Shown here piece after piece: positions 3,700 through 23,191 of a stretch of DNA of 64,000 bases. Source of the stretch: Candidatus Heimdallarchaeota archaeon (GTDB taxonomy: Archaea > Asgardarchaeota > Heimdallarchaeia > JABLTI01); the NCBI GenBank assembly GCA_018238155.1, contig JABCTZ010000019.1, forward strand, positions 1-64,000, given 5' to 3'. The translations under genes and the position numbers were made by a program. Every line of letters begins with the position of its first letter. The first letter of the stretch is position 1. Below the pieces are notes generated by a model. The model made no database searches, had not been told where the DNA came from, and worked only from the letters and a program-made list of their open reading frames with translations.

Positions 3700-3822
3700 A
3701 TTTTCTCTAACCTAATTTCCATCTCTGTTTACTATTAAAATTCCGAATTTAAATTTGTTGTGTTTTATCTCTCAAGTAGAATTAGTTTTTGTTATAGTGG
3801 TAACTCTCGAGAGTGATAATGA

Positions 3823-4596
3823 ATGGATTCAAATGAGAAGTATTATAGTTTCAAAAAAAATCCACAATTGGAATTACTTATGGGATTTGTTATAATATCA
3901 ATTATATTTTCTACTTGTTGTGTAATCTATCATTATTTAGATAAATTCATTTTTGATAAAAGAGACAACATAATGCCTATTAGTAATCCTAATGATTATG
4001 CAACTGTCAAACTTCTTAATGTAGTAGTAATTTTTCTTTGCCTGATTGTCATAGCATTTCTCCTATGGGGGTTATGGGAAGGACTCCGAATCTTCTTCCA
4101 AAGAGAAAGAGTCGTATTAGCAAAAATCACTCGAATATCAACCGAACAAATCGGAGAATTTGAAGACTCAACCGACTTCACCAATGCTTCTCTTTCTAAA
4201 GCTCTTGCGAAAAATTTCAAACAAGTAACTATTCATCAAAAAACTTCCAAAGGAAGAATAGAGAAAATCTGTATCTATGCCTCACAAGCAAAAGTCTTTT
4301 TTTATCCGTCTTCTTCGGATATTTTTTCTCATTTAGCAGGAACATTCAGCAATTTTGGTATGGAGATCATTCCTTTTGAACAAGGAGATTTCGATGACTA
4401 TCAGAAGGATTTCGATTTACAGTACGGGAATCCTACTAAATTCCAAGTGAAAGGGTTAAGCATTGTCGGTGAACCTGCTAACCAGCACATCAAAAATTTT
4501 GTTACTCCTGTAGATGGCCTTGTCGAAAGAATAGTAAAATTAAGTCAAGATGTTGAGATCCAAAGAAGGAAACTAAACCTCTCTTTACAACAGTAG
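3823..4596 (+). CDS. Hypothetical membrane protein (2 N-terminal TM segments)
   Basis: 257-aa ORF with two hydrophobic helices and a soluble C-terminal domain. Confidence 0.55.
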   Translation: MDSNEKYYSFKKNPQLELLMGFVIISIIFSTCCVIYHYLDKFIFDKRDNIMPISNPNDYATVKLLNVVVIFLCLIVIAFLLWGLWEGLRIFFQRERVVLAKITRISTEQIGEFEDSTDFTNASLSKALAKNFKQVTIHQKTSKGRIEKICIYASQAKVFFYPSSSDIFSHLAGTFSNFGMEIIPFEQGDFDDYQKDFDLQYGNPTKFQVKGLSIVGEPANQHIKNFVTPVDGLVERIVKLSQDVEIQRRKLNLSLQQ

Positions 4597-4601
4597 GTAA
4601 A

Positions 4602-5564
4602 TTGGTCTATGGTAAGAATCAGTATCCTACTATCTTACGAGGATTCCGAGGATTTGTTACAATCAGTTGTGTGGTGTTTTCAGAAGAACAACTAAAGAGG
4701 AAAATAGAACCATTTCTCCAGAAATCATTCTTGGGTTCAAAGACTACTGAAGGGTATGGTAGAGTCATTTGGGAATCATGTGAAATCAAGGACTTCACAA
4801 AACCAATTCCTACTGTAACAGTTCCTTTGTTTGAGAAATGTCCTCAATGCAAGAATTCAACAACAATCTATGATAAAAATTCTAAACTCAAACGATGCAC
4901 TTCTTGTAATCAGACATGGCAGTATAAGAAATTCAAAATTCGAGCTGGTTTACGAACAGATTACCCTGAGGAATTACAAAGATTACTTATTGCACTCATG
5001 CTACACGATTTTGTCCACACAGAGAAACACAAAAGTAAGATTTACCAACAAATAACCATAGAAGATGAGAAAATAAGTGAAGCTTGTCTAAACCACCACA
5101 ATGGAGAAGGGTGTACCAATATGCTCTTACCAATAGTGCAGTATTACGATAGACTTGCCTCTTACATCTCTCGAAAGAAACCATTCAAAACCGATTTTCG
5201 ATATAATAAATTAGAAGGGAAAATTGATTTCAAACAGTTGAAACAAGCAATCGAAGAAAAACAAAACAATTATGTAAAACTATATTCCTATATCCACAAC
5301 TCAAAAGAATTAAACAGAATTGTAGAATCAATGTTCTACAGTAATAGCCGTTTGCGAAATCATCTATTAATGATGGTGAACTTGGCAATAAATGATTATT
5401 ATAACCAAAAATTAATAATAACCAATGGAAATATCTCAATGTCGGTAAGTGAAAGAGAAGAGCTCGACACTACTATGGATGCTGAGATGCATTCCTTCAC
5501 TGACCATGATAATGCTGACTCTGAGAGGACAATCACCTCAAAGAAGAGAAGGCTTGAAGCATAG
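4602..5564 (+). CDS. Orphan Cas5-like RAMP-HD nuclease fusion, paralogue of 18483-19466; N-terminally short, with a Zn-ribbon insertion
   Basis: RGFV...FLGSKTTEGYGRV Gly-rich RAMP loop; CPQC...CTSC insert; LMLHDF, CLNHH, YYDRLA and LRNHL HD motifs; clear similarity to 18483-19466. Confidence 0.75.
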   Translation: MVYGKNQYPTILRGFRGFVTISCVVFSEEQLKRKIEPFLQKSFLGSKTTEGYGRVIWESCEIKDFTKPIPTVTVPLFEKCPQCKNSTTIYDKNSKLKRCTSCNQTWQYKKFKIRAGLRTDYPEELQRLLIALMLHDFVHTEKHKSKIYQQITIEDEKISEACLNHHNGEGCTNMLLPIVQYYDRLASYISRKKPFKTDFRYNKLEGKIDFKQLKQAIEEKQNNYVKLYSYIHNSKELNRIVESMFYSNSRLRNHLLMMVNLAINDYYNQKLIITNGNISMSVSEREELDTTMDAEMHSFTDHDNADSERTITSKKRRLEA

Positions 5565-5607: not shown

Positions 5608-6330
5608 ATGACCTATTGTCCAAGATGTGGTGTAGAAGTGGAAGCAAACAAAATAAAATGCCCACTATGTAATACCACCTTACAACCACTTGATGAAGAA
5701 CAACCAAATTATCAAAGTAAATATCCAGATGATGTTCAAAAGGATGAACAAAAACAACCAAAAGCGAAGAAAAAGAAAAGACTGCTAGCTTTTGAAATTA
5801 CAAGCGTTGTACTAGTTATCCCACTAATAGTATCTATAACAACAAATCTCATAATCGATGGAATAATAACTTGGTCGCTATATCCAATTGCATCACTGCT
5901 ACTTGCTTGGTTTATGATTTCCGCACCACTACTATTTCCAAAGAAAATAGCTATAATCGCAGTGGGTGAATTTATTCCGTTATTAGTTTACTTTTTAGTA
6001 ATTGATATAATAGATAATGGAACATTGAATTGGTATGTAAGAGTTGCCTTGCCAATAATTGCTTCAATAGGAGTAGCAGGGTTCATAATTGCATTTGGAA
6101 CTATAAAATCAAAAAATAAGGGATTGAATATACCCGCTTACATCTTATTTGGAGCAAGTATAATTTGTCTAATAGTTGATGTATGTCTAACAAGCTACAT
6201 TAATAACACACTCGGATTGGAATGGTCATTATATATTCTAGTGCCTGCTGTGCTAACAGGAGGATTCTTACTCTATCTGCATTTCCGTGTCACAAAAAAT
6301 AAGGATCTAAAAAGAAGATTACAATCATAA
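5608..6330 (+). CDS. Zinc-ribbon multi-TM membrane protein (DUF6320-like)
   Basis: YCPRCGV...CPLC N-terminus followed by about 6 TM helices. Confidence 0.7.
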   Translation: MTYCPRCGVEVEANKIKCPLCNTTLQPLDEEQPNYQSKYPDDVQKDEQKQPKAKKKKRLLAFEITSVVLVIPLIVSITTNLIIDGIITWSLYPIASLLLAWFMISAPLLFPKKIAIIAVGEFIPLLVYFLVIDIIDNGTLNWYVRVALPIIASIGVAGFIIAFGTIKSKNKGLNIPAYILFGASIICLIVDVCLTSYINNTLGLEWSLYILVPAVLTGGFLLYLHFRVTKNKDLKRRLQS

Positions 6331-6477
6331 GAAAATGAGCGAATCACTTGATTATTGGAATTGAGAAAAGAGCTTTCCAATAATTATTTCTAATCTAATA
6401 AAGAGTAATTTTATTGATATTTCATTACTTAGCTTTAAATAATGGTGAATAAAATAATTTAATGGAGATAACTGTTA

Positions 6478-6864
6478 TTGGATGATTCTAACCAAGAAAA
6501 AGTTTGTAAGGTTTGTGGAAATTCGGACATCAATCGTTCTATAAGTGGTCGACCGAATAAACGTGATATCCCTCCATTTTATTGTTCTTACAAATGTAAA
6601 ACAATAAGTGAAAGGCATATAGAACTGGGTTATGCTATTTTATCTATTATCATAGGAATTGGAGGCATATATTATCTCAATCAACAATTCACTCATATTG
6701 CTGCTCCAATTATGGTAGGTGTTTTTGTAGGTATATTTTCACTAAAGTCTCTATCAAGAAGTATCTATGGATATATTACCAATAGTAAAAGGAATAAACG
6801 TGAATTGGAACCAAATTATTCAGAAGATGTGAGCTCAAATCAAATAAAAAATGAATGGGTGTAA
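6478..6864 (+). CDS. Small Zn-binding membrane protein
   Basis: CKVC...YCSYKC followed by two TM helices. Confidence 0.6.
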   Translation: MDDSNQEKVCKVCGNSDINRSISGRPNKRDIPPFYCSYKCKTISERHIELGYAILSIIIGIGGIYYLNQQFTHIAAPIMVGVFVGIFSLKSLSRSIYGYITNSKRNKRELEPNYSEDVSSNQIKNEWV

Positions 6865-7097
6865 TGAAGCGGGTCACTAATTTTGTTGAACGAAAGAGAT
6901 GAAGGGGTCATCTCTAACTAAAGATTACTAATTCATTTATTTTTGATCTTTTTTCTGTAGATTAGTAGACACAGTACAACTACCAATACAGCAAATACAG
7001 GTACCCTGCGCTTCACTATCATCATCTTCTCAAGTAAAAGAAAGAACAGATGTAGAAGAAGGATTTTTTTCTGAAAATCGACTTTTACTTTAGGTAT

Positions 7098-7925
7098 TCA
7101 TAATTGATTCTCAAGAAGAAATTCAGTTAATACTCTGTTAAATTCCTTGGGGTTTTCCAAATTTGAAGTATGACCTGCATTATGAATAATTGCCATTGAG
7201 GAATGCTCTATTAATTCGTTCATTTTATTAGCATGTTTAAAAACAGCTTTTGATTCAAATTCACCATTAATTAGTAAAGTGGGAACATTGACTTGAGAAA
7301 GATCTTGAATTTTATAATCATAAATCGCACTAAATATCTTGTTAAATTCCTTAACAGTAAATCTGTTCATTTCTCCTTTTTCATAGTCAATAATACTATC
7401 ATCCTCACCAACCCACTTCTTCCCTCGAGACACTTTGGCAAACCAAAAAGCAAAGTTAGTATATCGTTTTACTCCAAATATTCGCACTATTAGTAGAAAC
7501 AACCATTTTGGGGCAAAAAGATACTTTAGTAGCTTATCGCCGAATGTAAGTTCAGAAGAAATTGCGGTATCAGATAGAATAAGTGCTTTAATACCATAAT
7601 CAGAGAATTTTGTTGCTAAAACTTGAGCAACCATTCCACCCATTGAAAGTCCAACGATAATTGGATTTCTTATTTGAAGCTTTTCTAACATCTCTTTCAA
7701 ATCAAAAGCAAATAACTCCATTGAATATCTCTTCTTCAAAGAACCGCCAGTACGTCCATGACCTCGAATATCAAAAGTAATAACTTGATAATTATTTGAA
7801 AAATGTTTCACTTGGGGCGCCCACATCTTGTGACTGACCCAGCCACCATGAATAAAAAGCAAAGGATGTCCTTTGCCAAGAATTTCATAATAAATATCAA
7901 TATCACTAATAGCTATTTTTGGCAT
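7098..7925 (-). CDS. Alpha/beta hydrolase
   Basis: FIHGG, DIRGHG, GLSMGG nucleophile elbow, AGH. Confidence 0.9.
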   Translation of the reverse strand: MPKIAISDIDIYYEILGKGHPLLFIHGGWVSHKMWAPQVKHFSNNYQVITFDIRGHGRTGGSLKKRYSMELFAFDLKEMLEKLQIRNPIIVGLSMGGMVAQVLATKFSDYGIKALILSDTAISSELTFGDKLLKYLFAPKWLFLLIVRIFGVKRYTNFAFWFAKVSRGKKWVGEDDSIIDYEKGEMNRFTVKEFNKIFSAIYDYKIQDLSQVNVPTLLINGEFESKAVFKHANKMNELIEHSSMAIIHNAGHTSNLENPKEFNRVLTEFLLENQL

Positions 7926-8080
7926 AATAATACTTCTCTTTATTCATTTGAATAGGTTTCTCATAAGCATTAAATAAAATCAAAAAAAGGAAAATATTCC
8001 TTCAATGAGCATGATAATGGGTTACAAATAATTTGTAGTATAATTCAAATAACAGAAATAACATCATAATAAATCCAGAG

Positions 8081-8890
8081 TTGAGCATTGACGTGGAAAT
8101 TACGAATGTAATAGCTATTGTTGTATTCATTGGACCTACTCTAGGAATAATTGCTTTTCTAATAGGGATGAAATTAACAGGTATGGAACGAAGAAATTAT
8201 TCTGTTCGTAAATCAAGTGATATCGTTAATGGAAAAAAGGCAATTGAGATAGTTGAAAAATATAAGCCAATAATATATCAAACGGATAATATAGAGAAAG
8301 ATATTCAATTCCTTTTTTATGAGCTAGTGGAACAAAAGGAAAAAATAGTACTAATCTATAGACCAGTATGGAATGACGAAATACATCCTAACCCGATCAT
8401 TCACTCATTATACAAATACTTTAGATGGATTTTCTATGGATCAGTAAAAGACATAGAATTTATTGAAATTTATATTGACAAAAAAACAGGCGAAGTAGAA
8501 TCATTCAATTATGAAACTCTAACAGAAGGGTCTACAATAGAAGCTCCTGAACACGAATTCACAGAAATAGAGAAGAAAGGGGAAAAATACTACAACAAAA
8601 CGAAGGGAAAAGAACTTGGTTATAGTCCATTTGAAGAGTATCGATGCATTTTACAAGTGAAAACTTGGAATCATTTACTAAGCATCACAGAAAAACCTCA
8701 GGGAAAGAAGTTTGACAGTCCTGTAACACCCTTAACAAATTGGCTATTTAGGAAATATTCTATCTCAAGAAGATCAACCGGGTATATAAGAACAAAATCA
8801 AAGAAATGGGTGAAATATATGGTGTCATTTGTATTACTGATTGTTTTTGGTATTGGTTTCCCACTTGTACTGTATTCCATCCTTCTGTAA
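8081..8890 (+). CDS. Hypothetical membrane-anchored protein
   Basis: 269-aa ORF with N- and C-terminal TM segments. Confidence 0.6.
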   Translation: MSIDVEITNVIAIVVFIGPTLGIIAFLIGMKLTGMERRNYSVRKSSDIVNGKKAIEIVEKYKPIIYQTDNIEKDIQFLFYELVEQKEKIVLIYRPVWNDEIHPNPIIHSLYKYFRWIFYGSVKDIEFIEIYIDKKTGEVESFNYETLTEGSTIEAPEHEFTEIEKKGEKYYNKTKGKELGYSPFEEYRCILQVKTWNHLLSITEKPQGKKFDSPVTPLTNWLFRKYSISRRSTGYIRTKSKKWVKYMVSFVLLIVFGIGFPLVLYSILL

Positions 8891-8985
8891 TCAGCATGAA
8901 TTCCAATTAAGGTGGAAATATCTTCTCAACGTTAGCAAGGAAAAGAGGAGCAAAATTTCAACTTTGTTTTCTATAGGATGTTGAT

Positions 8986-9246
8986 TTAGAGGTTTGAATT
9001 TTCGGTCTGTTTGCTAGTTTTGCGCAATCGGCTAAAACTTACTCCAAAGATTATTGTTGGAATCAATGAGATAAGAAAAACAAAAGCCATAATTAACGTC
9101 ATTGTTGGTAAGATAAAGTATTCCTCAGTCAAACCCACAATAATAGTTCCAATAAGAAGAAATACTGATAAAATAAGGAAGATAATAAAGAAGCTAATCC
9201 TTCTTCTAATTCTTTTTGTTAGATTTTCTGCCAAAGTATTGAACAT
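8986..9246 (-). CDS. Small 2-TM membrane protein
   Basis: 86 aa, two hydrophobic helices. Confidence 0.5.
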   Translation of the reverse strand: MFNTLAENLTKRIRRRISFFIIFLILSVFLLIGTIIVGLTEEYFILPTMTLIMAFVFLISLIPTIIFGVSFSRLRKTSKQTENSNL

Positions 9247-9655
9247 CCATATTCTTTTCTAGAAATAACAACGTGAAAGTACTTTTTAAAGAAATCGTAA
9301 GAACAAAATAATTGATAGATGTTCTTTAAATATTACCAATTACAAGTACAACAACCTATATACTATAATCTCCTAAGTCAACCTCAAAATCTCTAAATGT
9401 CCTATAATTTTTAATATGAATGTGTTTAATTCTCACTATTTATATGCCCCAATATTAATCTTCGAAGTTTAAAATAGAATTAATTGTTGTTTATTATGTA
9501 AACAAAAATTAGCCCATTTTCCAAATTCATTATATCTATACCAACATTGTTTTTAAATATAATTCTGATGAAAAAATAATGAAGAACTCAATTTAATTAC
9601 TTGGCTTAAGAAAAATAAGACGAAAACAATAATATAGCTTTCTTTACCTTCTTCT

Positions 9656-10393
9656 TTACTCAATTTTACAAACATCTGTTAATCTACAATTCCAGCAAGA
9701 AGTTTCGATTAATGGAAATTTCTCTTGGGAAATCTCGGAGAGTATTCGTTGATAAGATTCTTGAAAAGATAATAACTCATCTACTTTCAATTCAAAGATT
9801 CTCTCAATTCCTGATTTGTAATAATAGCAACCAATTTCTACTACATTATACAAGAATTCATCATATTCCATATTTTCAGCCCTAAAGTTGTTTAACAAAT
9901 TTGCATAAAATACCAGTGCTAGCTTATCATTTTGATGAGGTTCAGATTTATAGTCAATTATTCTTAATCCATCTTTACTCTTGCACAATTCCACACAATC
10001 AATTATTCCTCTCTGCCTTTCTGTCATTAATCGTGACTCTGTTTGAACAGGTATCCAGTAATCAGAGTCTTCGAAATATTTTCTCTGTTGATACAACCAA
10101 TAAAGTAATTTTATTTGATTACTAGCAATTTCTTTTGGTGGTTCTGGTTCAGTTATTCTATTCCGATATTTTTTATGAAACGTTTCAAAGAATGAGTGTT
10201 TGATTATTCCATTCAAATTATCTCCACTATAATTACGCAGAACATAGCTAGAAGTGCTCCTTTTTGAATTCATGAAAGCCGTCTTGTAGGGTATTGGATT
10301 CAATATTCGATGAATGCGGAATTTCTGAAGGCACTCAAGATAATACAAATATTCCGTTTTGCTTAAATTTATTTCATAATCAAGAACTACCAT
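9656..10393 (-). CDS. Cas4-like PD-(D/E)xK nuclease
   Basis: N-terminal YLEC, RGIID...IIDYKS, LVFYA helix, C-terminal CWNCxxxxxC (four-Cys Fe-S staple of Cas4/RecB-type nucleases). Confidence 0.75.
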   Translation of the reverse strand: MVVLDYEINLSKTEYLYYLECLQKFRIHRILNPIPYKTAFMNSKRSTSSYVLRNYSGDNLNGIIKHSFFETFHKKYRNRITEPEPPKEIASNQIKLLYWLYQQRKYFEDSDYWIPVQTESRLMTERQRGIIDCVELCKSKDGLRIIDYKSEPHQNDKLALVFYANLLNNFRAENMEYDEFLYNVVEIGCYYYKSGIERIFELKVDELLSFQESYQRILSEISQEKFPLIETSCWNCRLTDVCKIE

Positions 10394-10399
10394 CCTTAT

Positions 10400-11095
10400 T
10401 CACCCCTTATGTTTTAAAGAAAAAACCAAAGAAGGCTCTTCCATAAGTAAACTTTCAATGTTCTTCAGAATTCCTTTTTTCTTCCCTACTTTACTATGCC
10501 AATACATCGAAGCTATTTTTTCAGCTAATTGCTCTATTGATCGTTTATTAGCTGGAAGAATTCTCTTTTTTTCTCCCTCTAATTTCTCTCTCTTTTCCTC
10601 ATATTTTGCTAATTTAGAATAATAATTTCTTGTTGCTTTTTTCAGATCTACCAGTGAACTTTTTGGTATTTTTTTCTGATGTTTCAGACAGTGGAATAAC
10701 CTCAATTCTTGCAATGATATGCGTTCAAATTTATTGTTGAAAAAATCTTCAAGGGTAAGACAGCAATTCTTTTTGCCAGTAGCATCTCGAGAGTATATTA
10801 GTAATCCACTCTCTTCTAATGCATCACAATATTTCTTTGTCTGATCCCAAGACCAAGGAAGTGCGGAACGAATTTCATGCAAACTCTTACTAGATAATTC
10901 CCCCATCTCAAATAATTCATTTATCCAATTGACGAGGAATGCGTGTGTTCGTATGAATCCTTTTTGAGCTATAGTTTTGATTACTAGGCTCAAATTTCGA
11001 TGATTGTTCTTCTTCACTAGTTTATAATCATGTTCTCGTTGTAGACAAGCAACATTCTCATGCAACAATGCTATACAATCTTTCTCAAAAACCAT
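10400..11095 (-). CDS. Putative winged-HTH DNA-binding protein in the cas1-cas4 operon
   Basis: SLHEIRSALPWSWDQTKKYCDALEESGLLIY resembles a wHTH; tightly packed between cas1 and cas4. Confidence 0.5.
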   Translation of the reverse strand: MVFEKDCIALLHENVACLQREHDYKLVKKNNHRNLSLVIKTIAQKGFIRTHAFLVNWINELFEMGELSSKSLHEIRSALPWSWDQTKKYCDALEESGLLIYSRDATGKKNCCLTLEDFFNNKFERISLQELRLFHCLKHQKKIPKSSLVDLKKATRNYYSKLAKYEEKREKLEGEKKRILPANKRSIEQLAEKIASMYWHSKVGKKKGILKNIESLLMEEPSLVFSLKHKG

Positions 11096-11108
11096 AATCT
11101 TACCACCT

Positions 11109-13127
11109 TCAATTTACCTCATCAATCGATAAAGGCTTAAAAACAAAATTCTCTGAAAAGAACCGTTGAGAGAAAGTTTGTATTTGTTGCCGTTCCTTTT
11201 GAGTTAAAACATCTATCCTCTTTGTTTGTTGTAGCTTCTTCCAAAGAGTGAGTAGTTTGCTATTTGTTGATTGTTCTCTGCCTGTTAATTCTACAGAATG
11301 ATTTGCCAGTTTATTCACGAGTTCTTTCTGTTGCTGAAGATAGCTTTCATACGCTCGTTTAAGGTTCGTGTTTTGTCCCGAGGTTAAACTTATTGTTGTA
11401 TTAAGAGCACGCAAACCGATTTTTCTAATGAGTGTGTGAACATCTGAGTTGGGTTCAACACAGTAGTACGGGTCATAGCGTTTCCCTCGATTGACTAGAA
11501 AGTCGCCAGGACGTATTTCTTCGTTTCGGATTGCTTCATGAATCCAGAGTAAAGCAATGATCTTAGCTTGTTCGATAGTATCCAAGTATAAACCGAAGGA
11601 ATAACCTCGATGACACCAGCCACGAAAACCATCCCAAGCAAGAGAAATGACATTATAGATCTCCTTCTTCAAGTATGAAGTAATGATCAAGTTGACACCA
11701 TTAATAAGAGAATCATAAGCAGAACGAGCATAGAAATAGGCAAAGGGAAGGAACCGTTCAAAACGAACCATACGAGAAACGCTACGAGCGGGAGTCAGGA
11801 AACCATATTTCTGTGCTTCACGTTTTAATGGTTCAACCATCAAACTACTAACACCACCTTCATATCTTTGCCACTGCTTGAAATGAAGACTAGGCACACT
11901 CCAATAATTGCGAATAGTGTCTTTCATGTTGTCTAATGCATCGATAAAATAGATTTTCAGGTCAGCATCAACAAATTTTCGTATCTTCGTTTCAATAAGC
12001 GTTACTCGTGTTCGAAGGTTTGCTTGAAAAGTAGGGATATTGAGAATACTGCTAGCAATAAGGAGCTCATTACCACCAACCTCTTTATCCTGTGGTTCGA
12101 CACTTTCGATAGTATCAATTGGGGAATAGAGTCTGATTTTATAGTAGAGTTTGAGACCTGTTGCAGGATCAATCTTGTGGAGTAGATTCTCAAGATAATG
12201 ATAATCATCCCAGTGCTTTGCATAAATATATTTTAACTTTCGAAGAGGAAAATAAGTCAGATCAGCAGAATGGACCAGCTCTTCTGTAGTGGTTTTACTG
12301 CCAATAAATAAGTTCTCTTCTTTAGTACGAAGAGTAAAACTGCCAGGTTTAATGATAGAAATACCATACCAATATTTTTCTAGAGAGTCGAGACTATCCT
12401 TATTTTGAGGTGGAAGTGTTTCGCCAGTAAGATCATGAAAGCTCTTCTGGAGAATGTCAAAATGACTGTCCCAATAGTACACACGATAATCATCAAAGTG
12501 CTCATCATATCCAAATTCCATAGGCGAACCACAGTGAGGACAGTAAAAAGTAGTAGAACCAATTCTGATGTTCTGCAAATAAAAACTAAATGCACCAATA
12601 ACTTGCTTGCAACGGTCAATCGGACAACGAAAGAATTCACCATCTCTATTCTCTCGAATAAAACGAGCCATCGTTCTACTCTTCAGTTGTCCAGGCACTC
12701 GACAGTTAAAGAATTCGCATTTGGGAGCATCACGAGGAACTGCTTGAAGAGCTACCCGGAGTTTCAAATGAGCAGCCATAAGCGAAGGATTGCTCTTGAA
12801 AGCAAGGTCTAATAATGTGCACCTTTGGATAGCAGATAACCACTGACAAGCACCACAATTAGATCGGTCATCAGTTGGAGCTTCATCTTCTTGAGGTTGT
12901 CCTTCTGAACTATAATATAACCGAACAGATCGTTCAAGGGATTGCTTGTCAGTATAATACTGAATATTTCCTTGGACAGCAAGGGTACGTAATACTTGAC
13001 AGATTTGTGAATGGCTCCTGTTTAAATTAATAGCAAGATCCTTACTTGAAACAGCTTGTGTGGGATCTACGCGGTCATGCACCAAAGATGCAACTAAAGA
13101 GCGAAGATCATTTCTACCTGTTCTCAT
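11109..13127 (-). CDS. cas1: Highly divergent Asgard-type Cas1 integrase with N-terminal wHTH and Cys-rich Zn-binding domains
   Basis: C-terminal Cas1 catalytic pattern YEG...ARSAYDSLINGVNL...GWCH..SFGLYLDTIE (canonical EG...D.vNalLN...GflH...L..DlmE). N-terminal wHTH, CGAC/CPxxxC/CPHC clusters. Start placed at MRTG (13127, GAGG upstream); the ORF track starts at 13193. Confidence 0.7.
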   Translation of the reverse strand: MRTGRNDLRSLVASLVHDRVDPTQAVSSKDLAINLNRSHSQICQVLRTLAVQGNIQYYTDKQSLERSVRLYYSSEGQPQEDEAPTDDRSNCGACQWLSAIQRCTLLDLAFKSNPSLMAAHLKLRVALQAVPRDAPKCEFFNCRVPGQLKSRTMARFIRENRDGEFFRCPIDRCKQVIGAFSFYLQNIRIGSTTFYCPHCGSPMEFGYDEHFDDYRVYYWDSHFDILQKSFHDLTGETLPPQNKDSLDSLEKYWYGISIIKPGSFTLRTKEENLFIGSKTTTEELVHSADLTYFPLRKLKYIYAKHWDDYHYLENLLHKIDPATGLKLYYKIRLYSPIDTIESVEPQDKEVGGNELLIASSILNIPTFQANLRTRVTLIETKIRKFVDADLKIYFIDALDNMKDTIRNYWSVPSLHFKQWQRYEGGVSSLMVEPLKREAQKYGFLTPARSVSRMVRFERFLPFAYFYARSAYDSLINGVNLIITSYLKKEIYNVISLAWDGFRGWCHRGYSFGLYLDTIEQAKIIALLWIHEAIRNEEIRPGDFLVNRGKRYDPYYCVEPNSDVHTLIRKIGLRALNTTISLTSGQNTNLKRAYESYLQQQKELVNKLANHSVELTGREQSTNSKLLTLWKKLQQTKRIDVLTQKERQQIQTFSQRFFSENFVFKPLSIDEVN

Positions 13128-13905
13128 GTAACCTCTTCTCCAGTATAAAATCATCAACCATAAGACTATGGGGACCGATAGAAGATTCATCAAGCCAAGG
13201 AGGAAGCTCCTGGTAATCGGTAAAGACTGAGAGAATAATCTCTATCAATTCTTTATCATTCAAATCGTTAGCTCGAGTAATTTCCACTTGATTGATCCGA
13301 GAAACAACCTCTTCAGAGAATAGTTGTAAGGAATTATCATCATAATCATCCGATTCTTCTCTCTTCGAATCCTTCGCATAAGCAATCGTTCGTTTAATCT
13401 TTTTGACCCACTCAAACCATTCCTGATACTCAGCAATTGATTTATCAACGGTTCGTTCCTTCAGTTGAAGGAAGGTCAGAAATTTAGGAACATTCTCAGC
13501 AGAAGGAAGAAAACCGAAGGAATGATCGTCACTACAACCATCTTCACTATCCAACTTATTAGCTAACCAAGCATTAAAACCGAAAAAACGAAACAAAGCA
13601 CTAGAAAGAAAAGGATGGTCAAGCTGAAGATCAACAACACGACGACGACCTGAACGATAATACGTAATAAGACCAAGATTTGCCAGTGACTTGAGACTAG
13701 AACCAATAGCATTAGGGGATCGGTCTAGAAACCGACAAAGAAAACCAACAATATTGACAAACTTGCATGTGAAATTCAAGATAAACAATAACTGAAGTGT
13801 AAGCAAAACTTCCTCCATAACAGGAGTGAATTTAACATTCATATTCAACTCAGCAAAACGATACTCGTCTACCTCTGTTAAGACAAGATTATTCTGAAAC
13901 TTCAT
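13114..13905 (-). CDS. ArsR/MarR-like winged-HTH protein, first gene of the cas1 operon
   Basis: LCRFLDRSPNAIGSSLKSLANLGLITYYRSGRRRVV. ATG start chosen because 13956-14070 is a repeat region. Its stop overlaps the cas1 start. Confidence 0.6.
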   Translation of the reverse strand: MKFQNNLVLTEVDEYRFAELNMNVKFTPVMEEVLLTLQLLFILNFTCKFVNIVGFLCRFLDRSPNAIGSSLKSLANLGLITYYRSGRRRVVDLQLDHPFLSSALFRFFGFNAWLANKLDSEDGCSDDHSFGFLPSAENVPKFLTFLQLKERTVDKSIAEYQEWFEWVKKIKRTIAYAKDSKREESDDYDDNSLQLFSEEVVSRINQVEITRANDLNDKELIEIILSVFTDYQELPPWLDESSIGPHSLMVDDFILEKRLHENR

Positions 13906-13955
13906 AAGATTTTTCTCCAACAGAACTCTCCGACAAAATTGCTTATAAACCTCTA

Positions 13956-14070
13956 ACTCACAAAAAATACCAGAATGCCTTCCCAATACTCACAAATAAT
14001 TCAGAAAACCAATGCACTTCTAGGTAAATTTACGCAAATTTCCTTCACTCACAAAAAATTCTGTAAACTC
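13956..14070. repeat. Three iteron-like direct repeats ACTCACAAAWAATW upstream of the cas1 operon
   Basis: actcacaaaaaataccag (13956), actcacaaataattcag (13988), actcacaaaaaattctg (14047). Confidence 0.7.
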
Positions 14071-14235
14071 CTTTAGTCCGCGCTATTCTTACTTCTAAGA
14101 ATGCCAATTTTCCTCTTCTTATCCCTTCTCATGACTAAATAAACCCCTCTTGTACATTAGCGAAAGTTAAACTCTATTCCTATTAACAAAGTACTCAAAG
14201 AAGAAAAAAATTGTTGAAATTTAAATTTGCTTTTT

Positions 14236-14358
14236 TCAAGATTCCAATTCATTCATTCGTTTCTCAAATGCATCAAGTCTTCTCCAAACTTCTTTTATTT
14301 GTTCATCAAGCTTTTGCTCTAGTTTGTCAATTCTTTTGTTTACGTACATGCTACTCAT
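14236..14358 (-). CDS. Unannotated 40-aa coiled-coil protein
   Basis: MSSMYVNKRIDKLEQKLDEQIKEVWRRLDAFEKRMNELES*; heptad pattern; GAGGA upstream. Confidence 0.55.
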   Translation of the reverse strand: MSSMYVNKRIDKLEQKLDEQIKEVWRRLDAFEKRMNELES

Positions 14359-14519
14359 TATTATCCTCTTCCTATATTGATTTTCTAATAGTTACTCGCG
14401 TTGGAACGTTAAGCAAGACCACTGTAAGTGGGCTTGTAGTGACCGCGAATCTGCGACTAGCAGAGCTATTAGGAATTTCTTTCTTCTATGAACACTACTT
14501 AAAAAATAGATTAGTATAT

Positions 14520-16094
14520 TTAATGATTTTCTTGTTTTACTAGGTTACTAAAAGTTTTTAAAAAATACCTTACAACTCCATTCCTAATTAGATTTTTTTC
14601 TATTTCTGTTCCAAAATGTTCTTCAATTTGAGAAAGCAATTTCTTATCATCTGAATCAATTCGAATATAACTTTCATAAAAAATCATTTTTTTTGCAAAG
14701 TATTTTAGTTGGGCATTTGGTCTCAAATCAAGGAAAACTGGTGCTGCTCTAAACCTTCTATATTGTATTCGACGTCCATGATAAAGTAAAAATTCCATCA
14801 AAGATTTTTTCTCCTCTGATAAAATTTTTTCAAGTACTTTTATTGATACTGCACTTTTTCCTGCTTCTATATATTGAACAGACTTAGTACTAATCCCTAG
14901 TTTCTGTGCAAACTCAAATTGTGTTGTTTTTTTTCTATATCCCTTTAGTAATTGTCCTAATCCAACTATTTGTAAATCTGATATTAAACTAAAATCAAAA
15001 TAGCCGTTTGGTATAGTGTCTTTCTTGAAATCTTGAAATTGATAAGAAATTTTGCTTTTTATCTCTCTTCCTTCTTTTAACTTTAAGAATTGCACCCTCT
15101 TTTCAGGATGACAACTGTACATTTCACTCTTGTATATTTGATTATACTTTCTAGGAATGTATATTTGAAATGTATTGTCTGGTCTTTCAGTTAATCTTGA
15201 CTTGATAGATAATGATACTAAGAATCTAGTGAACTCATTTACATAAAATTTACTTGCACTTGTGAATGTAATACTGCCACTAGCATAGCTCCCATCAGCA
15301 TCCATTACACCAGACCAATAATGTGAACGAAATGGTTGTTCTTGGAAAAGTAACGGCTCACGTAATTTTTGATATTTCCTTCCACCAATAGGTTGATTTG
15401 TAAGAAAAGAAAATAATCGTGCTACCCAGAGATTGGTAATAATGAGTTTCGGGCAATTCTCAGTTTGAAGTTGAATTCTCCCTGTTTGCTTGAATAATCG
15501 TTCGAACTGTTCCTTTAACTGTCGAATGTTTTCAATGGAATAATCAACAATATTGAGAACATATTTAGTGATATTCCCATCACCATTGACCATACCACAA
15601 AGATAAGCAAGCTCAGTAGTTAAGCTAGTAGGCATCGCAAAGGTTTCACCTCGAGAGGATTCAAGTATTCGTTCATGGAAATTAAGTTCAAAGTGATCCG
15701 GAAAGCAACGATAGAAGGGCAGGGGAACAGCACCTCGCTCGAGATACTTTCGAAGGATATCACGCCATTCGAGGATCTTACGATTATCAGATCGGTAAAA
15801 ATAATCACGCAATTTTTCAGCGACAAGAAGGTCTTGATTACTTACAAGTTCCTTTTCCTCCTCAGTAAGCTGAACATAGGGTAAACGAGCAAGGATACGG
15901 TCAGAATGTTTTTCCCGGACAAAATCCGCCCTGCGAACAAGGATAGGAAAAAGGTTGAGAATATTGGTACCTTCAAGAATGATTTCTTTTCCTCGATTGC
16001 TTTCTAGTAACTCATTGGCGTTTATCCACTGATTGACCGGCTTAACCTCTGCATCAAAATAGATCGAATCATTAAGCCAATTGAGCACTGCCAA
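14520..16094 (-). CDS. Stand-alone double-motif LAGLIDADG endonuclease with C-terminal XRE-type HTH
   Basis: LAYLCGMVNGDG and YWSGVMDADGS motifs; TQFEFAQKLGISTKSVQYIEAG; no intein splice junctions. Confidence 0.8.
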   Translation of the reverse strand: MAVLNWLNDSIYFDAEVKPVNQWINANELLESNRGKEIILEGTNILNLFPILVRRADFVREKHSDRILARLPYVQLTEEEKELVSNQDLLVAEKLRDYFYRSDNRKILEWRDILRKYLERGAVPLPFYRCFPDHFELNFHERILESSRGETFAMPTSLTTELAYLCGMVNGDGNITKYVLNIVDYSIENIRQLKEQFERLFKQTGRIQLQTENCPKLIITNLWVARLFSFLTNQPIGGRKYQKLREPLLFQEQPFRSHYWSGVMDADGSYASGSITFTSASKFYVNEFTRFLVSLSIKSRLTERPDNTFQIYIPRKYNQIYKSEMYSCHPEKRVQFLKLKEGREIKSKISYQFQDFKKDTIPNGYFDFSLISDLQIVGLGQLLKGYRKKTTQFEFAQKLGISTKSVQYIEAGKSAVSIKVLEKILSEEKKSLMEFLLYHGRRIQYRRFRAAPVFLDLRPNAQLKYFAKKMIFYESYIRIDSDDKKLLSQIEEHFGTEIEKNLIRNGVVRYFLKTFSNLVKQENH

Positions 16095-16172
16095 TTATTT
16101 TTCCTCAGCAGCTTTGGTCAAATAAGAAATAAATACTCTTCTCTAAAAGAATTATTTCTACCTTAAAAATAG

Positions 16173-16487
16173 CTATTTCTTTATTATTTTACGCTCTCTA
16201 TAATTTGATTCAGCAGTAAAATTCTCATCATCAGGATAGTATGAAGTTCTTACCCAAATAATCTTAGTTTTAAAATCAGGTTCACATGGAATATGTACAA
16301 ATCGACTATTTTCTAATTCCCCCCACAACAAGTACCGTCCATCTTTTGTATCCTCAATAACATCCCATTGTCGAACAATTTCTTCTATTTCATCTGGTGG
16401 TATACTTCGCTCTCTCCAACGAAGCTCTCCATGTCCTCTCTGAAAGCGAATAATAAATTCTTTGTTTTTTTCTTTAAAGTGGTTCAT
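16173..16487 (-). CDS. DUF4258-like (RelE/BrnT-fold) putative toxin
   Basis: H...R..ER.I...EI......VIED....RYLLWG......HI.......V.TSY.P pattern. Confidence 0.6.
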   Translation of the reverse strand: MNHFKEKNKEFIIRFQRGHGELRWRERSIPPDEIEEIVRQWDVIEDTKDGRYLLWGELENSRFVHIPCEPDFKTKIIWVRTSYYPDDENFTAESNYRERKIIKK

Positions 16488-16614
16488 GGAACTAGAGGGG
16501 GAAATATATAAATCTTGTGCATCTATACACTACACATGTGTTTATCCTCTGGATCTATTATTTGCTGAAATAGTGTTTCCATTTCCTAAATCTCATTTAT
16601 TGAATAACTGAACC

Positions 16615-17370
16615 GTGAGAAAAATGAAACAAAGTAATCCCTATTCTAAAGAAGAGAAATTTAGAGAACTAATAAAAGAAGCTTACAGAAAAGTCTTCAT
16701 CACGGAAAAACAAAAAACCGCACTTTTAGCAAAATATAATCGAAAGTATGATGGAGACGCTCTGTCCATGCAAGATAGAAATGCTCTGCGAATGCTAAGA
16801 AAAACTATAATACAGTATCGAACTTCTGTGTCTGAGTCTGCAATAGCTGCTCTAAAATTTGAAAGTGTTCTTGAATTACTTTCACTTGTGGATAAAAGCT
16901 CTGGTATTTATTGTCATGTTTGTAAAGTGGGAATATTAGTATCACGAACCGTGAGTTCTTGGATTGTGGGTAAGGATTATGAATTAATTTTAGAACAGAA
17001 ACCTGCGAAAGTATGTAGTAACAATACTTGTAAAAGTACTTCATTTAGCTTAGCAGTAGAGAAATATGAGGATGAGCTAATCAATGAAGTTGAAAAGCAA
17101 TTACGATCGATTAGAATTACAAACACCGAAAAATTAGATCAAAAGAAATGTCCGCAGTGCCGTTCAGAAACGTTAGAAGCAAACCATACTGGTGATGTAT
17201 ACAAATATCATCAGGGATTATATCATATCAAGATCAGGGATGTTCCACTAAAAGCATATTGCAACATTTGTCACTATCAAGAAGTAGGAGAAAATATAAT
17301 AATAGAATTGGAAAAATTAGAAACCCTCTTAGATACTGAAACACTCGAATTGTTGAAATTGGATGGCTAA
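16615..17370 (+). CDS. Protein with two YgiT/MqsA-type zinc fingers (putative antitoxin)
   Basis: CHVC..G...KPAKVC...C and CPQC...IRDVP..YCNIC. Confidence 0.6.
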   Translation: MRKMKQSNPYSKEEKFRELIKEAYRKVFITEKQKTALLAKYNRKYDGDALSMQDRNALRMLRKTIIQYRTSVSESAIAALKFESVLELLSLVDKSSGIYCHVCKVGILVSRTVSSWIVGKDYELILEQKPAKVCSNNTCKSTSFSLAVEKYEDELINEVEKQLRSIRITNTEKLDQKKCPQCRSETLEANHTGDVYKYHQGLYHIKIRDVPLKAYCNICHYQEVGENIIIELEKLETLLDTETLELLKLDG

Positions 17371-17420
17371 TAAATTAAATTCTCTCTGCTAATAACTATA
17401 CTAAACACTGTTATAAATTG

Positions 17421-17597
17421 CTATTTTGTCAACTCAAAAACTATCTTCTTTGACCCATCAAGATAACACAACACTTCTTCTCCAGGTTCAATATTGAGTG
17501 CCTCAACTAATTCTAATGGAATGCTGACCCGATGTGTTCCAGAACTGAAAATTATTTTTCTCTTAAAGATAATTTTAGGATCTTTTTCTTCATCCAT
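17421..17597 (-). CDS. AbrB/MazE/SpoVT-family DNA-binding protein (missing from the ORF track)
   Basis: MDEEKDPKIIFKRKIIFSSGTHRVSIPLELVEALNIEPGEEVLCYLDGSKKIVFELTK*; typical V.IP......L.I.PG..V motif. Confidence 0.8.
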   Translation of the reverse strand: MDEEKDPKIIFKRKIIFSSGTHRVSIPLELVEALNIEPGEEVLCYLDGSKKIVFELTK

Positions 17598-17653
17598 ATC
17601 TAATCACAATAAATGATGGTTTAAAATATTTAAAAATGCTGTTCAAATCGGTC

Positions 17654-17700
17654 AGAGAAGTGCTTATATATGATGACTAACAACATAATAATATGATGAT
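17654..17700 (+). promoter_or_regulatory. Putative BRE/TATA promoter of the cas7 operon with ATATGATGA direct repeats
   Basis: agagaagtgcTTATATAtg; atatgatga at ~17668 and ~17691, between the divergent AbrB and cas7 genes. Confidence 0.45.
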
Positions 17701-17721
17701 TGAGCTAATTGGTGAACAAAA

Positions 17722-18489
17722 ATGAATGTCTCTCGAAACTTTAAGCGAATAAAAATAACCGCAAAAACAGCAATAGCAAAACCCGGGAACGGGCAAATTG
17801 GGGGAGGAAATACCAAGAACTTATTACTAGTTCATAACGGACGAGGGTATGGGCGAGAAGGAAAGAGATACCTAGTGAAGGGATTAAGAGGATTGCTAAA
17901 TCATTCAATGATGGAGCTTGCAAAACAAAAAGGAATAGAAGTATGTCACTCATCGGACAAAAAAGAAACACAAACAGGAGAAAAATTGCTACCAGACGCA
18001 TTTCATCCAAACGGCTCGTGCTATCCAGAAGAGGAGTGCATAAGACACAGATTAATGGGTTCAATGAAAAAACAATCAGTGCTGCGATTTGAACCAGTAG
18101 TGATAGTATCGGATAATATAACAGGGGAGTTCGAAGACGCACAGAAAATACACATAGCAACGGACAAAAGAAATGCGCTAGTGCAAGGAACAAAAAGAAG
18201 CATACAAGATTTCGGAGAAAGATACATAGCAGGAGAATTTACCTATTCGATAGAATTATTGAAAGAAATCTCTCTAGAAGAAATGGGATTCTTACTGAAA
18301 AGTATTCTCTACATGCCAGAATTGCGGTGGGGTGCATCAGGAAATAATGGAGCGGGAAAATTAGAATTAGAAGAAGTAAATCTACAAGAAGTAATGCGCA
18401 CAAGAACTGTCAAGAAAGGAAAAGTGTCCGAAAAAGAAAATGAAAAAAATCTTTGGAAACAAATGGAGGAGGGACTTAAAGCTTGGTAA
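17722..18489 (+). CDS. Cas7-group RAMP (Csm3/Csf2-like) backbone protein
   Basis: KGLRGLL; C...C..HRLMGS...SVLRF Zn region; E..IAGEFTYSIEL; EMGFLL; G-loop WGASGNNGAGKL. Confidence 0.8.
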   Translation: MNVSRNFKRIKITAKTAIAKPGNGQIGGGNTKNLLLVHNGRGYGREGKRYLVKGLRGLLNHSMMELAKQKGIEVCHSSDKKETQTGEKLLPDAFHPNGSCYPEEECIRHRLMGSMKKQSVLRFEPVVIVSDNITGEFEDAQKIHIATDKRNALVQGTKRSIQDFGERYIAGEFTYSIELLKEISLEEMGFLLKSILYMPELRWGASGNNGAGKLELEEVNLQEVMRTRTVKKGKVSEKENEKNLWKQMEEGLKAW

Positions 18490-19466
18490 TAAGGGAAATA
18501 TATACACTAGAAGGAGAATTGCTGTCACCAATTATTGTTTCTTCATCATTGATAAAGAAAGGAAGAATTTGGATTAGAATAGTAAGGGAGTTAGGAACTG
18601 AAGAAAAACCACAAAAGAGCTTCACTGCGAAACTAATAAAGGGGGAACGAAAAGCACCAGACCATGTGAACGCATACAGAGGATTTGTGAGAATAACTAC
18701 AGTTGATTCAAACACATCTCGAGCGAAGAAAAACATTGATCTCTATCTTAACAAAGATTTCCTTGGAAGACGTGTAAACGAAGGATTTGGAAAAGTCAAG
18801 TGGTTGAATTATAAAATAGAAAATTACGTAAGAAATGCAACTGAAAAAAAACAAAAGAAATTCAGAATACGAAAAGGACTAGGACCAAATTATCCAAAAG
18901 AATTGCAAAGATTGCTTAGAGCTCTAATGTTACATGATTTTGTGGAAACAGAAAAACATCCAAGTAAGATATTCAAAGAAATTTCAATTAAGGATGAGGA
19001 AATAAGAGAAGCTTGCTTAAAACATCATAATGTAGGATACTGCAAGAATATACTACTCCCACTGGTCAGGTATTATGACCATTTAGCTGCATACATGAAC
19101 AGAAAAAGCGTACACATAAGAAACTGCAGATATGATTATGAGAATGGAAAAATAGATTTTGAAAAATTAGCTAATGACATAGAAGAAAGACAACAATCTG
19201 CCTATAAATTATATAATTTCATCTATTACTCAAAAGAATTAAGTAGAACAGTGGAAGCAATGAAATTTGGAAAAACATCTCTGCGAGATCATTTGTTGTT
19301 AATGGCTAATCTAGCTATACATGGCTACTGCAATAGGTGGTTAATAATGGAAAATGGAAAAATTGAACTCGAAAAGAAAATCTCATCATCGGTAACAAGA
19401 AAGGATGAACTTGAATGTGCTAAAGATGTTGAGATGCATCTGTTATCTAGTATGAGCAATGCTTAA
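18483..19466 (+). CDS. Cas5-like RAMP fused to a Cas10-type (permuted) HD nuclease
   Basis: YTLEGELLSPIIV first RAMP strand; FLGRRVNEGFGKV G-loop; LHDF, CLKHH, YYDHLA, SLRDH; overlaps the cas7 stop. Confidence 0.8.
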   Translation: MVIREIYTLEGELLSPIIVSSSLIKKGRIWIRIVRELGTEEKPQKSFTAKLIKGERKAPDHVNAYRGFVRITTVDSNTSRAKKNIDLYLNKDFLGRRVNEGFGKVKWLNYKIENYVRNATEKKQKKFRIRKGLGPNYPKELQRLLRALMLHDFVETEKHPSKIFKEISIKDEEIREACLKHHNVGYCKNILLPLVRYYDHLAAYMNRKSVHIRNCRYDYENGKIDFEKLANDIEERQQSAYKLYNFIYYSKELSRTVEAMKFGKTSLRDHLLLMANLAIHGYCNRWLIMENGKIELEKKISSSVTRKDELECAKDVEMHLLSSMSNA

Positions 19467-19542
19467 TCGTAGAGTACGTTCAACTCAATGATCGAGAAAG
19501 TAAAAAACATAACTGGGTAAAAAATAGCAAATAGAAGCTATT
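19380..19542 (+). ncRNA. Putative structured ncRNA overlapping the 3' end of the RAMP-HD gene (copy 2)
   Basis: Covarying stems shared with 5433-5595, continuing 76 nt past the stop codon. Confidence 0.6.
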
Positions 19543-19554
19543 AGAAAGTAAAAT

Positions 19555-19699
19555 TGGCGCCCCGAACGGGATTCGAACCCGTTTATGGTGCTTGATTTTT
19601 TTTCAAGCTTGTCCATCGGGCTCTGCAGCCAAAAGCTTGCAGTGCACATTTCTTGGCTTTGACAGCCGAAGATGATGAGCCGTACTACACTATCAGGGC
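19555..19699 (-). tRNA. tRNA-Asp(GUC) with two BHB introns (37/38: 19621-19659; 48/49: 19583-19610); CCA encoded
   Basis: Acceptor stem GCCCUGA/UCGGGGC-G-CCA, CU-GUC-A loop, T arm ACGGG-UUCGAAU-CCCGU after splicing; both inserts form bulge-helix-bulge motifs. Confidence 0.9.
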
Positions 19700-23159: not shown

Positions 23160-23191
23160 TCTGTTCCCTCTCATATTGCTTTTTTCTTGCT

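Follow-up and report, generated by a model that had tools for sequence, protein, structure and literature searches.

A 64,000-nt stretch of the genome of a Candidatus Heimdallarchaeota archaeon (GenBank assembly GCA_018238155.1, contig JABCTZ010000019.1, positions 1 to 64,000 of the forward strand), hereafter designated the window, encodes a giant homologue of Cas1 (F1) in an AT-rich context (GC content of about 33%). We propose that F1 is probably the integrase of polymerase-less, casposon-like elements of 8 to 11 kb that use tRNA-gene 3' ends as insertion sites in one Heimdall-group genus of Asgard archaea, the conserved gene cassette surrounding F1 being the mobility core of these elements. 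F1 belongs to an already predicted kind of protein, the Asgard Cas1 variants (aCas1), and is not the founder of a new kind.

F1 (672 aa) is encoded by an uninterrupted open reading frame (ORF) at positions 11109..13127 on the minus strand, with an ATG at 13127; the open frame spans positions 11109-13193 and offers an alternative TTG start at 13193. F1 itself had no match in Pfam, NCBIfam, PADLOC, or PHROGs, nor by phmmer in the Protein Data Bank (PDB). A profile of its close orthologues had no match in the PDB either, and the ESM Atlas returned only chance-level rows at 0.80. The failure of curated models to recognize F1 therefore reveals its divergence, without thereby excluding membership of the Cas1 family. 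The Cas1 signal emerged only from a widened family profile, comprising 23 sequences including paralogues, and from structure. The best PDB sequence for the widened profile was the casposase 6opm (E 1e-6). Comparison by hhalign with 26 canonical Asgard Cas1 proteins gave a match at 97.3% (E 2e-11, 247 columns), and a distant relative of F1, P0046, reaches the Pfam model Cas_Cas1 (E 1.3e-8). The AlphaFold2 model of F1 (pLDDT 68.6, with values below 50 at residues 76-251, the zinc region, and at residues 498-513, around H506) had only Cas1 and casposase chains as top Foldseek matches (6opm, E 4.7e-8; 4n06, E 1.5e-7). VIA-align gave a Z score of 18.2 over 278 residues with the Cas1 of A. fulgidus (4n06; residues 255-669 of the model versus 7-344) and of 16.9 with the M. 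mazei casposase 6opm, both Cas1 domains being covered. Judged from sequence profiles and from this predicted model, F1 is a real, extremely diverged Cas1 relative harboring the two-domain Cas1 fold. The original prediction, made from the nucleotide sequence, had proposed this comparison with Cas1 and casposase structures, which identified the Cas1 helical catalytic domain.

The N-terminal β domain of Cas1 corresponds to residues 254-337 of F1, approximately (positions 12117..12368, minus strand; aligned to 4n06 from residue 7 and to 6opm from residue 8), and the α-helical catalytic domain to residues 338-672 (positions 11112..12116, minus strand; hhalign and hidden Markov model (HMM) alignment to 6opm). 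The latter domain contains the motifs WQRYEGG (E423, codon at 11859-11861), NGV (N476, 11700-11702), GWCH (H506, 11610-11612), and LYLDTIE (D516, 11580-11582, and E519, 11571-11573), all read on the minus strand. The five residues were paired by hhalign with the catalytic positions of canonical Cas1, in agreement with the HMM alignment to 6opm. Residues E423, N476, H506, and D516 were invariant, and E519 nearly so, in 13 orthologues sharing 38-94% identity; N476, H506, and D516 were still invariant once paralogues and distant relatives (19-25% identity) were included. The clustering of the E, H, and D residues in space is suggested by these alignments and not by measured distances. Comparison with orthologues from genome G009 indicated purifying selection on F1 (dN/dS of 0.14), as well as on two of its partners described below, F3 (0.13) and F4 (0.17).

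The remainder of F1 consists of additional modules. Residues 1-77 (positions 12897..13127, minus strand) form a winged helix-turn-helix (wHTH), as indicated by VIA-align Z scores of 10 to 11.7 with Zalpha, ArsR, and MarR wHTH folds and by profile matches to regulators of the Lrs14/MarR type (E 5e-6 to 1e-3). Residues 88-200 (positions 12528..12866, minus strand) comprise two putative zinc modules of the Cys4 type, defined by the pattern C91-x2-C94-x8-C103...C137 followed by C168-x4-C173-x22-C196-x2-C199. The eight cysteines were invariant or at least 90% conserved in alignments of 13 and 23 sequences, and weak matches to zinc-ribbon Pfam models were obtained for residues 207-227. Thus, the catalytic E/H/D-E pattern (YEG, GWCH, LYLDTIE), the N-terminal wHTH, and the cysteine clusters that had been read from the sequence were all recovered, and the extra DNA-binding modules that had been attributed to this Cas1 were found as a wHTH and putative zinc modules.

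A search of 1.84 billion representative proteins with the F1 profile retrieved only 31 proteins. Twelve close relatives, 662-680 aa in length and sharing 38-94% identity, originate from Asgard metagenome-assembled genomes (MAGs) labelled Gerd- or Heimdallarchaeota. The family was detected in 8 of 10 genomes of the genus, in none of 30 genomes from other genera of the class, and in 19 of 301 genomes of the phylum; the full-length architecture was found only in this genus and in one other genome among the 301 Asgard genomes. Several copies of F1 are split or contain stop codons. This patchy, multi-copy distribution with broken copies fits a mobile element. A canonical cas1 gene was found in 2 of 10 sister genomes, and the presence of the giant Cas1 does not track that of canonical cas1. 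The F1 profile also matches parts of larger proteins, including hits of 1000-1350 aa in other Asgard genera: proteins of 700-1336 aa embed the catalytic region (390-590, approximately), and P0044 (3922 aa) contains nine stretches matching profile positions 292-362. These larger proteins are other architectures of diverged Asgard Cas1.

To define the genes associated with F1, ORFs were compared in 17 loci, five from the genome harboring the window, nine from six sister genomes, and three from distant MAGs. A cassette was present in all 17 loci, in the order F4 (LAGLIDADG endonuclease), a conserved non-coding site, F5 (wHTH protein), giant Cas1, F2 (wHTH protein), and F3 (Cas4-like nuclease). 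The cassettes of the distant MAGs displayed 38-55% identity and unrelated flanks, and the five cassettes of the window's own genome are paralogous and divergent.

The main evidence for mobility is provided by the position of the relatives of the window copy. Three of the cassettes of the same genome lie at tRNA 3' ends, at tRNA-Val (1 nt from the stop codon of F2), tRNA-Ala (62 nt after F2), and tRNA-Leu (101 nt before F4). A tRNA-Pro gene is located 43 nt after F3 in a distant MAG. The chance of finding at least three of five cassettes at tRNAs is about 1.6e-8, based on 43 tRNAs in 4.08 Mb. Direct repeats of the tRNA 3' end were detected at a distance from the tRNA: a 45-nt repeat at +7975 for tRNA-Leu, 31-nt repeats with one or two mismatches at +10224 and +13116 for tRNA-Ala, and repeats of 27, 32, and 32 nt at +9979, +11146, and +11819 for tRNA-Pro. 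The elements bounded by such repeats are 8 to 11 kb in length. The succession of repeats indicates stacked insertions, the newest being located next to the tRNA.

An empty site was identified for the tRNA-Leu element in the sister species G003, in which the flanking sequence follows tRNA-Leu after 128 nt, versus 8.1 kb in the genome harboring the window. The tRNA-Leu element (8.0 kb) is fully covered by seven genes, encoding F4, F3, F12, F1, F2, Orc1/Cdc6, and a 180-aa ORF. F4 faces the tRNA in this element. No Tyr or Ser recombinase was found among the genes of the elements examined, including the tRNA-Leu element. The empty site and the tRNA-end repeats of the tRNA-Leu element call for an integrase, and Cas1 is the only candidate. 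As in casposons, Cas1 is the only integrase-like gene and occurs without Cas2.

Additional tRNA fragments were noticed during this survey. At loci L016 (contig C43), L004, and L013 (contig C13), a TATA-like box (TATTTTAAA / GTTTTAAAA) lies 15-25 nt upstream of several distal tRNA 3' fragments, looking as if these orphan fragments had their own promoter. On contig C21 of the window's own genome, at positions 101013-102478 approximately, ARAGORN reported a 'tRNA-Met with a 1378-nt intron' containing two fragments resembling tRNA 3' ends (…CCCACCA) and an antisense ORF. This 'intron' is probably another insertion stack at a tRNA.

In the mechanism that we propose, Cas1 would join the 3'-OH ends of the element to the 3' segment of the tRNA gene by transesterification. 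The wHTH and zinc modules of Cas1, together with the two wHTH partners, would be responsible for site choice, and the Cas4-like and LAGLIDADG nucleases would prepare the DNA ends. The expected outcome of integration would be the formation of direct repeats of the tRNA end of 25 to 47 nt. Integration by Cas1 and the roles assigned to all of its partners are inferred.

Several observations weigh against this proposal. Comparison of the termini of four delimited elements revealed no terminal inverted repeat (TIR) above shuffled controls, although short or imperfect TIRs could escape this analysis. The direct repeats (25-47 nt) are longer than the target-site duplications of casposons (13-15 bp) and partly non-identical. 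The two copies flanking the tRNA-Leu element differ at 5 of 30 positions, the distal copy being more similar to the tRNA of the sister species. Because of these differences, recombination between attP and attB, with one copy borne by the element, would fit better than simple duplication. At tRNA-Val, the distal fragment derives from a different tRNA and is followed by more than 100 nt repeating the terminus of the element itself. In genome G006, a related cassette is located in an 11.5-kb indel, defined by comparison with the empty site of the window's genome, in the absence of any tRNA or duplication. Finally, the window copy displays no repeat of the tRNA-Asp end, T-arm/CCA fragment, TIR, or defined ends within the window, and it is the RAMP pair described below, not the Cas4-like gene, that faces the window tRNA, versus the Cas4 end of the cassette at tRNA-Val, tRNA-Ala, and tRNA-Pro.

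The window copy is located in a variable island of 13 kb (positions 6331..19554) that extends from a DUF6320 gene to the 3' end of tRNA-Asp(GTC), as established by synteny with sister species. The tRNA-Asp gene (positions 19555..19699, minus strand) contains a 63-nt intron; it was identified by reading of the sequence and by ARAGORN with introns allowed, having been missed by ARAGORN with default settings and by Rfam at the gathering threshold. In three sister species, 0.7-2.2 kb separate an intron-less tRNA-Asp from the homologue of the window gene at 5608-6330, which defines positions 6331-19554 as an island at the tRNA 3' end. The island comprises a hydrolase gene, the Cas1 cassette including F4, a toxin-antitoxin pair (16173-17370), and a pair of RAMP genes (17722-19466) located 1.6 kb beyond F4 and displaying weak matches to Csm3/RAMP. 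The island is absent at the same site in G006, G003, and G002. In G010, a 7.3-kb island contains the RAMP and toxin-antitoxin part without the Cas1 operon, and the tRNA-Asp intron is 50 nt in length. In G008, a related cassette lies in the opposite orientation and adjoins a 5' half of tRNA-Asp. Since the window copy has no recognizable ends of its own, its mobility is deduced from its relatives. It is probably an older, rearranged insertion, the RAMP and toxin-antitoxin pairs being cargo or neighbors. A connection between tRNA introns and the LAGLIDADG gene was also envisaged but rejected, as 23 of the 43 tRNAs of the genome have introns.

Other features of this region were recorded. Among sequencing runs, none of RNA was listed as containing this DNA, and small shares (0.06-0.12) occur as contigs in only four sediment metagenomes. 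Aligned to the window, these contigs are pieces from relatives, some of their joints not being assignable to excision; the apparent contig breaks near 14160 and 9638 may be due to nothing more than divergence past the 90% cut-off. Paralogous gene pairs, each encoding a protein of 257 or 255 aa followed by a protein of 320 or 327 aa, are present on the plus strand at 3823-5564 and 17722-19466, the second proteins being 42% identical. Each pair ends in a tail, about 60-150 nt long, that is similar in the two cases (5429-5492 and 19381-19523). Metagenome contigs of relatives join position 5492 directly to position 19530, so the first pair abuts tRNA-Asp in these organisms. Three tandem NosD/β-helix paralogues (19773-24538, minus strand; 43-45% identical) separate tRNA-Asp from PolB; this block is also variable, as PolB and tRNA-Asp are only about 1-2 kb apart in sister species.

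We then considered the partners of F1, which are encoded, as F1, on the minus strand. F5 (positions 13114..13986, with a likely ATG at 13908) is the first gene of the operon and its end overlaps the start of the Cas1 gene. It encodes a wHTH protein of the ArsR/SmtB type, with a PDB profile match to SmtB (E 9e-5), and was found in 11 orthologous loci; F12 occupies its place in the paralogous subfamily. F2 (positions 10400..11095), kept in all 17 loci, is predicted to combine a MarR/TFE-like winged helix with a helical C-terminus. All top Foldseek matches of its AlphaFold2 model (pLDDT 70.9) were MarR/TFE wHTH proteins (E of about 4e-3). The possibility that F2 is a hidden Cas2 was eliminated, as its fold is a winged helix. 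The two HTH genes reported to flank Cas1 are therefore F5 and F2. F3 (positions 9656..10393) is a Cas4-like nuclease of the PD-(D/E)xK type (Pfam PDDEXK_1, E 3.2e-9) with a 1+3 cysteine cluster. Matches to Cas4 models were weak. D132, Y148-K149, and C21 were invariant, and C233 and C242 nearly so. F4 (positions 14520..16094, 524 aa) is a LAGLIDADG endonuclease with two motifs that carries a fused XRE-type HTH (Pfam LAGLIDADG_3 and HTH_3). The aspartates of its two motifs, D172 and D267, were invariant in 14 sequences with identities down to 32%. F4 lies beside the cassette in 15 of the 17 loci, the remaining two ending there at a contig edge.

No Cas2 was found in any of the 17 cassettes, and the only cas1-cas2 pair of the genome is located on contig C15. 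The window contains no CRISPR array, and scans with default settings gave no Rfam or tRNA match in it. The absence of Cas2 from the module had been noted beforehand, as had that of PolB: the delimited elements encode no PolB, and the PolB gene of the window (25796-28558) is a host gene, which lies beside the same tRNA-Asp in species devoid of the island.

Beyond F4, gene content varies among loci and includes the RAMP pair, a NERD/Hjc-like protein of 710 aa with a HEAT-like protein, or TnpB. Of the 17 loci, 5 carry the RAMP pair, the window among them; elsewhere it is replaced by unrelated genes such as the F16/F11 pair and TnpB, or by nothing. TnpB (Cas12f-like TNB and OrfB_IS605 domains) adjoins F4 at L014 (3845-5206), L020 (4961-6154), and L022 (4731-6227). 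Comparison of the window cassette with the syntenic one of locus L017 (G009:C9) revealed identities of 88% for the Cas4-like protein, 74% for F4, 66% for Cas1, 58% for F5, and 50% for F2. This uneven divergence suggests that the Cas1 and wHTH genes, which would set specificity, have evolved faster or been exchanged. At locus L017, the Cas4-like gene is also immediately followed by an inserted ORF of 1747 aa (12829-18072), and the LAGLIDADG-HTH gene is present a second time (2684-4258).

The conserved non-coding site, about 170 nt in length (positions 13988..14160, minus strand), occurs once per locus in 16 of the 17 loci, no match being found in L015. It is located downstream of F4 on the same strand wherever F4 is present and, in the window's genome, only beside cassettes. 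In the window, the site consists of a head of 20-23 nt (14138-14160, minus strand: AATGTACAAGAGGGGT...) and two 22-nt direct repeats 59 nt apart (14047-14068 and 13988-14009). Across loci, the head is accompanied by two or three direct repeats, each about 22 nt long and spaced roughly 59 nt from the next. The sequence of the repeats differs between subfamilies and the head is kept. Neither a consensus RNA fold nor an Rfam match was obtained for the site, which was for this reason treated as a DNA site. It is not simply the operon promoter, since the genes on either side of it are convergent in the paralogous subfamily. Its size would fit the target of a LAGLIDADG enzyme combined with iterons for wHTH proteins. 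The region 13956-14170 had been proposed as a donor end for integration assays. This proposal was not upheld: the site was ruled out as an end of the element since each locus has only one copy of it, without an inverted partner, and this copy is internal, separating the LAGLIDADG gene from the Cas1 operon. Immediately downstream of F4, a GC-rich segment about 75 nt long (14387-14455) is 96-97% identical in two other species (L017 and L021), versus about 70% for the surrounding DNA; it has no Rfam match and a fold z-score of only -1.3 to -1.4.

F1 resembles aCas1 proteins as they are described in later summaries of the original work. According to these summaries, aCas1 are extremely diverged, Asgard-only Cas1 homologues unlinked to arrays or Cas2 (Makarova et al., 2020, via PMC8730458 and PMC10691335) that were proposed to be transposases of unknown mobile elements, some of them beside TnpB (PMC10691335, PMC8730458). 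Some aCas1 are reported to occur in ARAMP systems and others to be 'possibly associated with novel MGE', MGE denoting mobile genetic elements (PMC8730458). As far as can be judged from these summaries, F1 is alike in its divergence, its restriction to Asgard archaea, the lack of a link to arrays or Cas2, and the presence of TnpB beside F4 in several loci. The aCas1-TnpB loci described by Altae-Tran et al. (2023, PMC10691335) are flanked by repeats, whereas TnpB is optional in the loci of F1 and located outside the delimited element. A full-text search of the literature retrieved no paper joining Cas1 and LAGLIDADG in Asgard archaea.

Casposases act without Cas2 and insert DNA at the 3' ends of tRNA-Pro and tRNA-Leu genes, the casposons encoding PolB and displaying TIRs and 13-15-bp duplications (PMC9939771, PMC8464041). 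The elements of F1 are most similar to family 2 casposons (Aciduliprofundum boonei, Methanosarcina mazei; 6opm) in combining a Cas1-fold integrase lacking Cas2 with extra DNA-binding modules, and in displaying insertion at tRNA 3' ends, direct repeats, and tandem insertions (PMC9939771). However, the F1 elements do not encode PolB, have no detectable TIRs, and display repeats of 25-47 nt, not always identical, instead of 13-15 bp. The family 2 casposase has a C-terminal HTH, in contrast to the N-terminal wHTH and zinc modules of F1, and the LAGLIDADG-HTH, Cas4-like, and two wHTH partners of the F1 cassette are not casposon genes. Membership among casposons thus fails on two defining features, PolB and TIRs. 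The original preference for a casposase-like transposase over a spacer integrase was partly retained: the tRNA-end insertions, repeats, and empty site of relatives support it strongly, but the window copy has no detectable ends of its own and no element displayed TIRs above chance.

Adaptation modules associating Cas4, Cas1, and Cas2 occur in CRISPR types I-A, I-B, I-C, I-D, II-B, and V. The F1 cassette resembles these modules by the association of Cas1 with a Cas4-like Fe-S nuclease and by repeats of about 30-45 nt beside a fixed, 'leader-like' tRNA, older remnants being distal. It differs from them by the absence of Cas2, array, and short spacers, by inserts in the kilobase range, and by a Cas1 about twice the usual size. 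A bolder version of our proposal, which we advance only tentatively, is that the cassette could be a self-contained Cas1-driven integration machine, devoid of polymerase and TIRs, which inserts kilobase elements beside a tRNA 'leader', each insertion leaving a repeat-sized copy (about 30-45 nt) of the tRNA end and the newest element being nearest to the tRNA. In design, such a machine would be a living intermediate linking casposons to CRISPR adaptation, and the fused wHTH and zinc modules might retarget its specificity for tRNAs.

Three other explanations were considered for the association of F1 with its partners. The cassette might belong to an array-less CRISPR-derived defence system (ARAMP), in which Cas1 and the Cas4-like nuclease would act with the Cas7-like/RAMP-HD proteins on foreign DNA, for example by capturing or cutting it, and not on their own mobility. 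The window is similar to ARAMP loci (PMC8730458, PMC12669027), as it contains a Cas7-like/RAMP pair, without an array, beside a distinct Cas1 and a PD-(D/E)xK nuclease. Most ARAMPs include a distinct Cas1 (PMC8730458), and the proximity of the RAMP pair to F4 in the window, together with its presence in 5 of 17 loci, counts against a role restricted to mobility and allows a role in defence. Moreover, NERD/Hjc-like nucleases lie beside F4 in other loci, as in defence islands, and tRNA-linked variable islands also gather defence genes. We nevertheless regard this explanation as unlikely. Most F1 cassettes lack RAMPs, the pair being absent from 12 of 17 loci, and RAMPs also occur without the Cas1 operon, as in the G010 island, which shows that the two modules are separable. 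Since each occurs alone, the link between RAMP and Cas1 seems to reflect a common location in tRNA islands, or cargo, rather than participation in one machine. In addition, the 8-kb tRNA-Leu element combines the cassette, tRNA-end repeats, and an empty site in a sister species in the absence of RAMP.

Slightly less probable still is movement by another agent, such as LAGLIDADG homing combined with recombination, a host integrase acting on tRNA-like att sites, or TnpB/IS, the Cas1 cassette being a passenger involved in repair, replication, or addiction. The catalytic aspartates of the LAGLIDADG protein are invariant, the conserved sequence of 20-23 nt following F4 in the 16 of 17 loci where it was detected has the right size for such an enzyme, and TnpB is found next to F4 in several loci. 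The differences between the proximal and distal tRNA ends also resemble att recombination, not duplication. However, homing does not generate direct repeats, the genes of the elements examined include none for a Tyr or Ser recombinase, and the TnpB gene near the tRNA-Leu element is situated upstream of the tRNA, beyond the limits of the element. A passenger role is also at odds with the invariant active site of Cas1 and the purifying selection acting on it, and relatives of Cas1 are proven tRNA-targeting integrases (PMC9939771). The last alternative, a spacer integrase acting in trans, would make Cas1 and Cas4 an adaptation module for an array located elsewhere in the genome. Although many adaptation modules have this make-up and a CRISPR-type cas1-cas2 pair is present on contig C15, we consider this explanation very improbable, as the 17 cassettes have no Cas2, the window has no array, and five divergent copies coexist in one genome. 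Furthermore, the F1 family is present in sister genomes in which no canonical cas1 was found, such as G009 (90% completeness), and LAGLIDADG and wHTH partners are not known from adaptation modules.

Cas1 links transposons, in the form of casposons, to the origin of CRISPR memory. To our knowledge, bench work has been limited to three casposases and to a few Cas1 proteins of CRISPR systems, and we know of none on an Asgard Cas1 variant. The relatives of F1 provide a compact and delimited system, comprising the 8-kb tRNA-Leu element with its empty site, the 10-kb tRNA-Ala element, and the tRNA-Pro relative, in which an intact active site is associated with a Cas4-like partner in the absence of Cas2 and polymerase. 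Should the integrase be other than Cas1, the elements would owe their movement to an unknown mechanism, which would also be worth knowing. If our proposal of integration by Cas1 is correct, Cas1-driven mobility would not require self-synthesis, and the fused wHTH and zinc modules could be shown to direct site choice. The repeat-sized duplications laid down beside a leader-like tRNA would then offer a concrete model for the origin of arrays.

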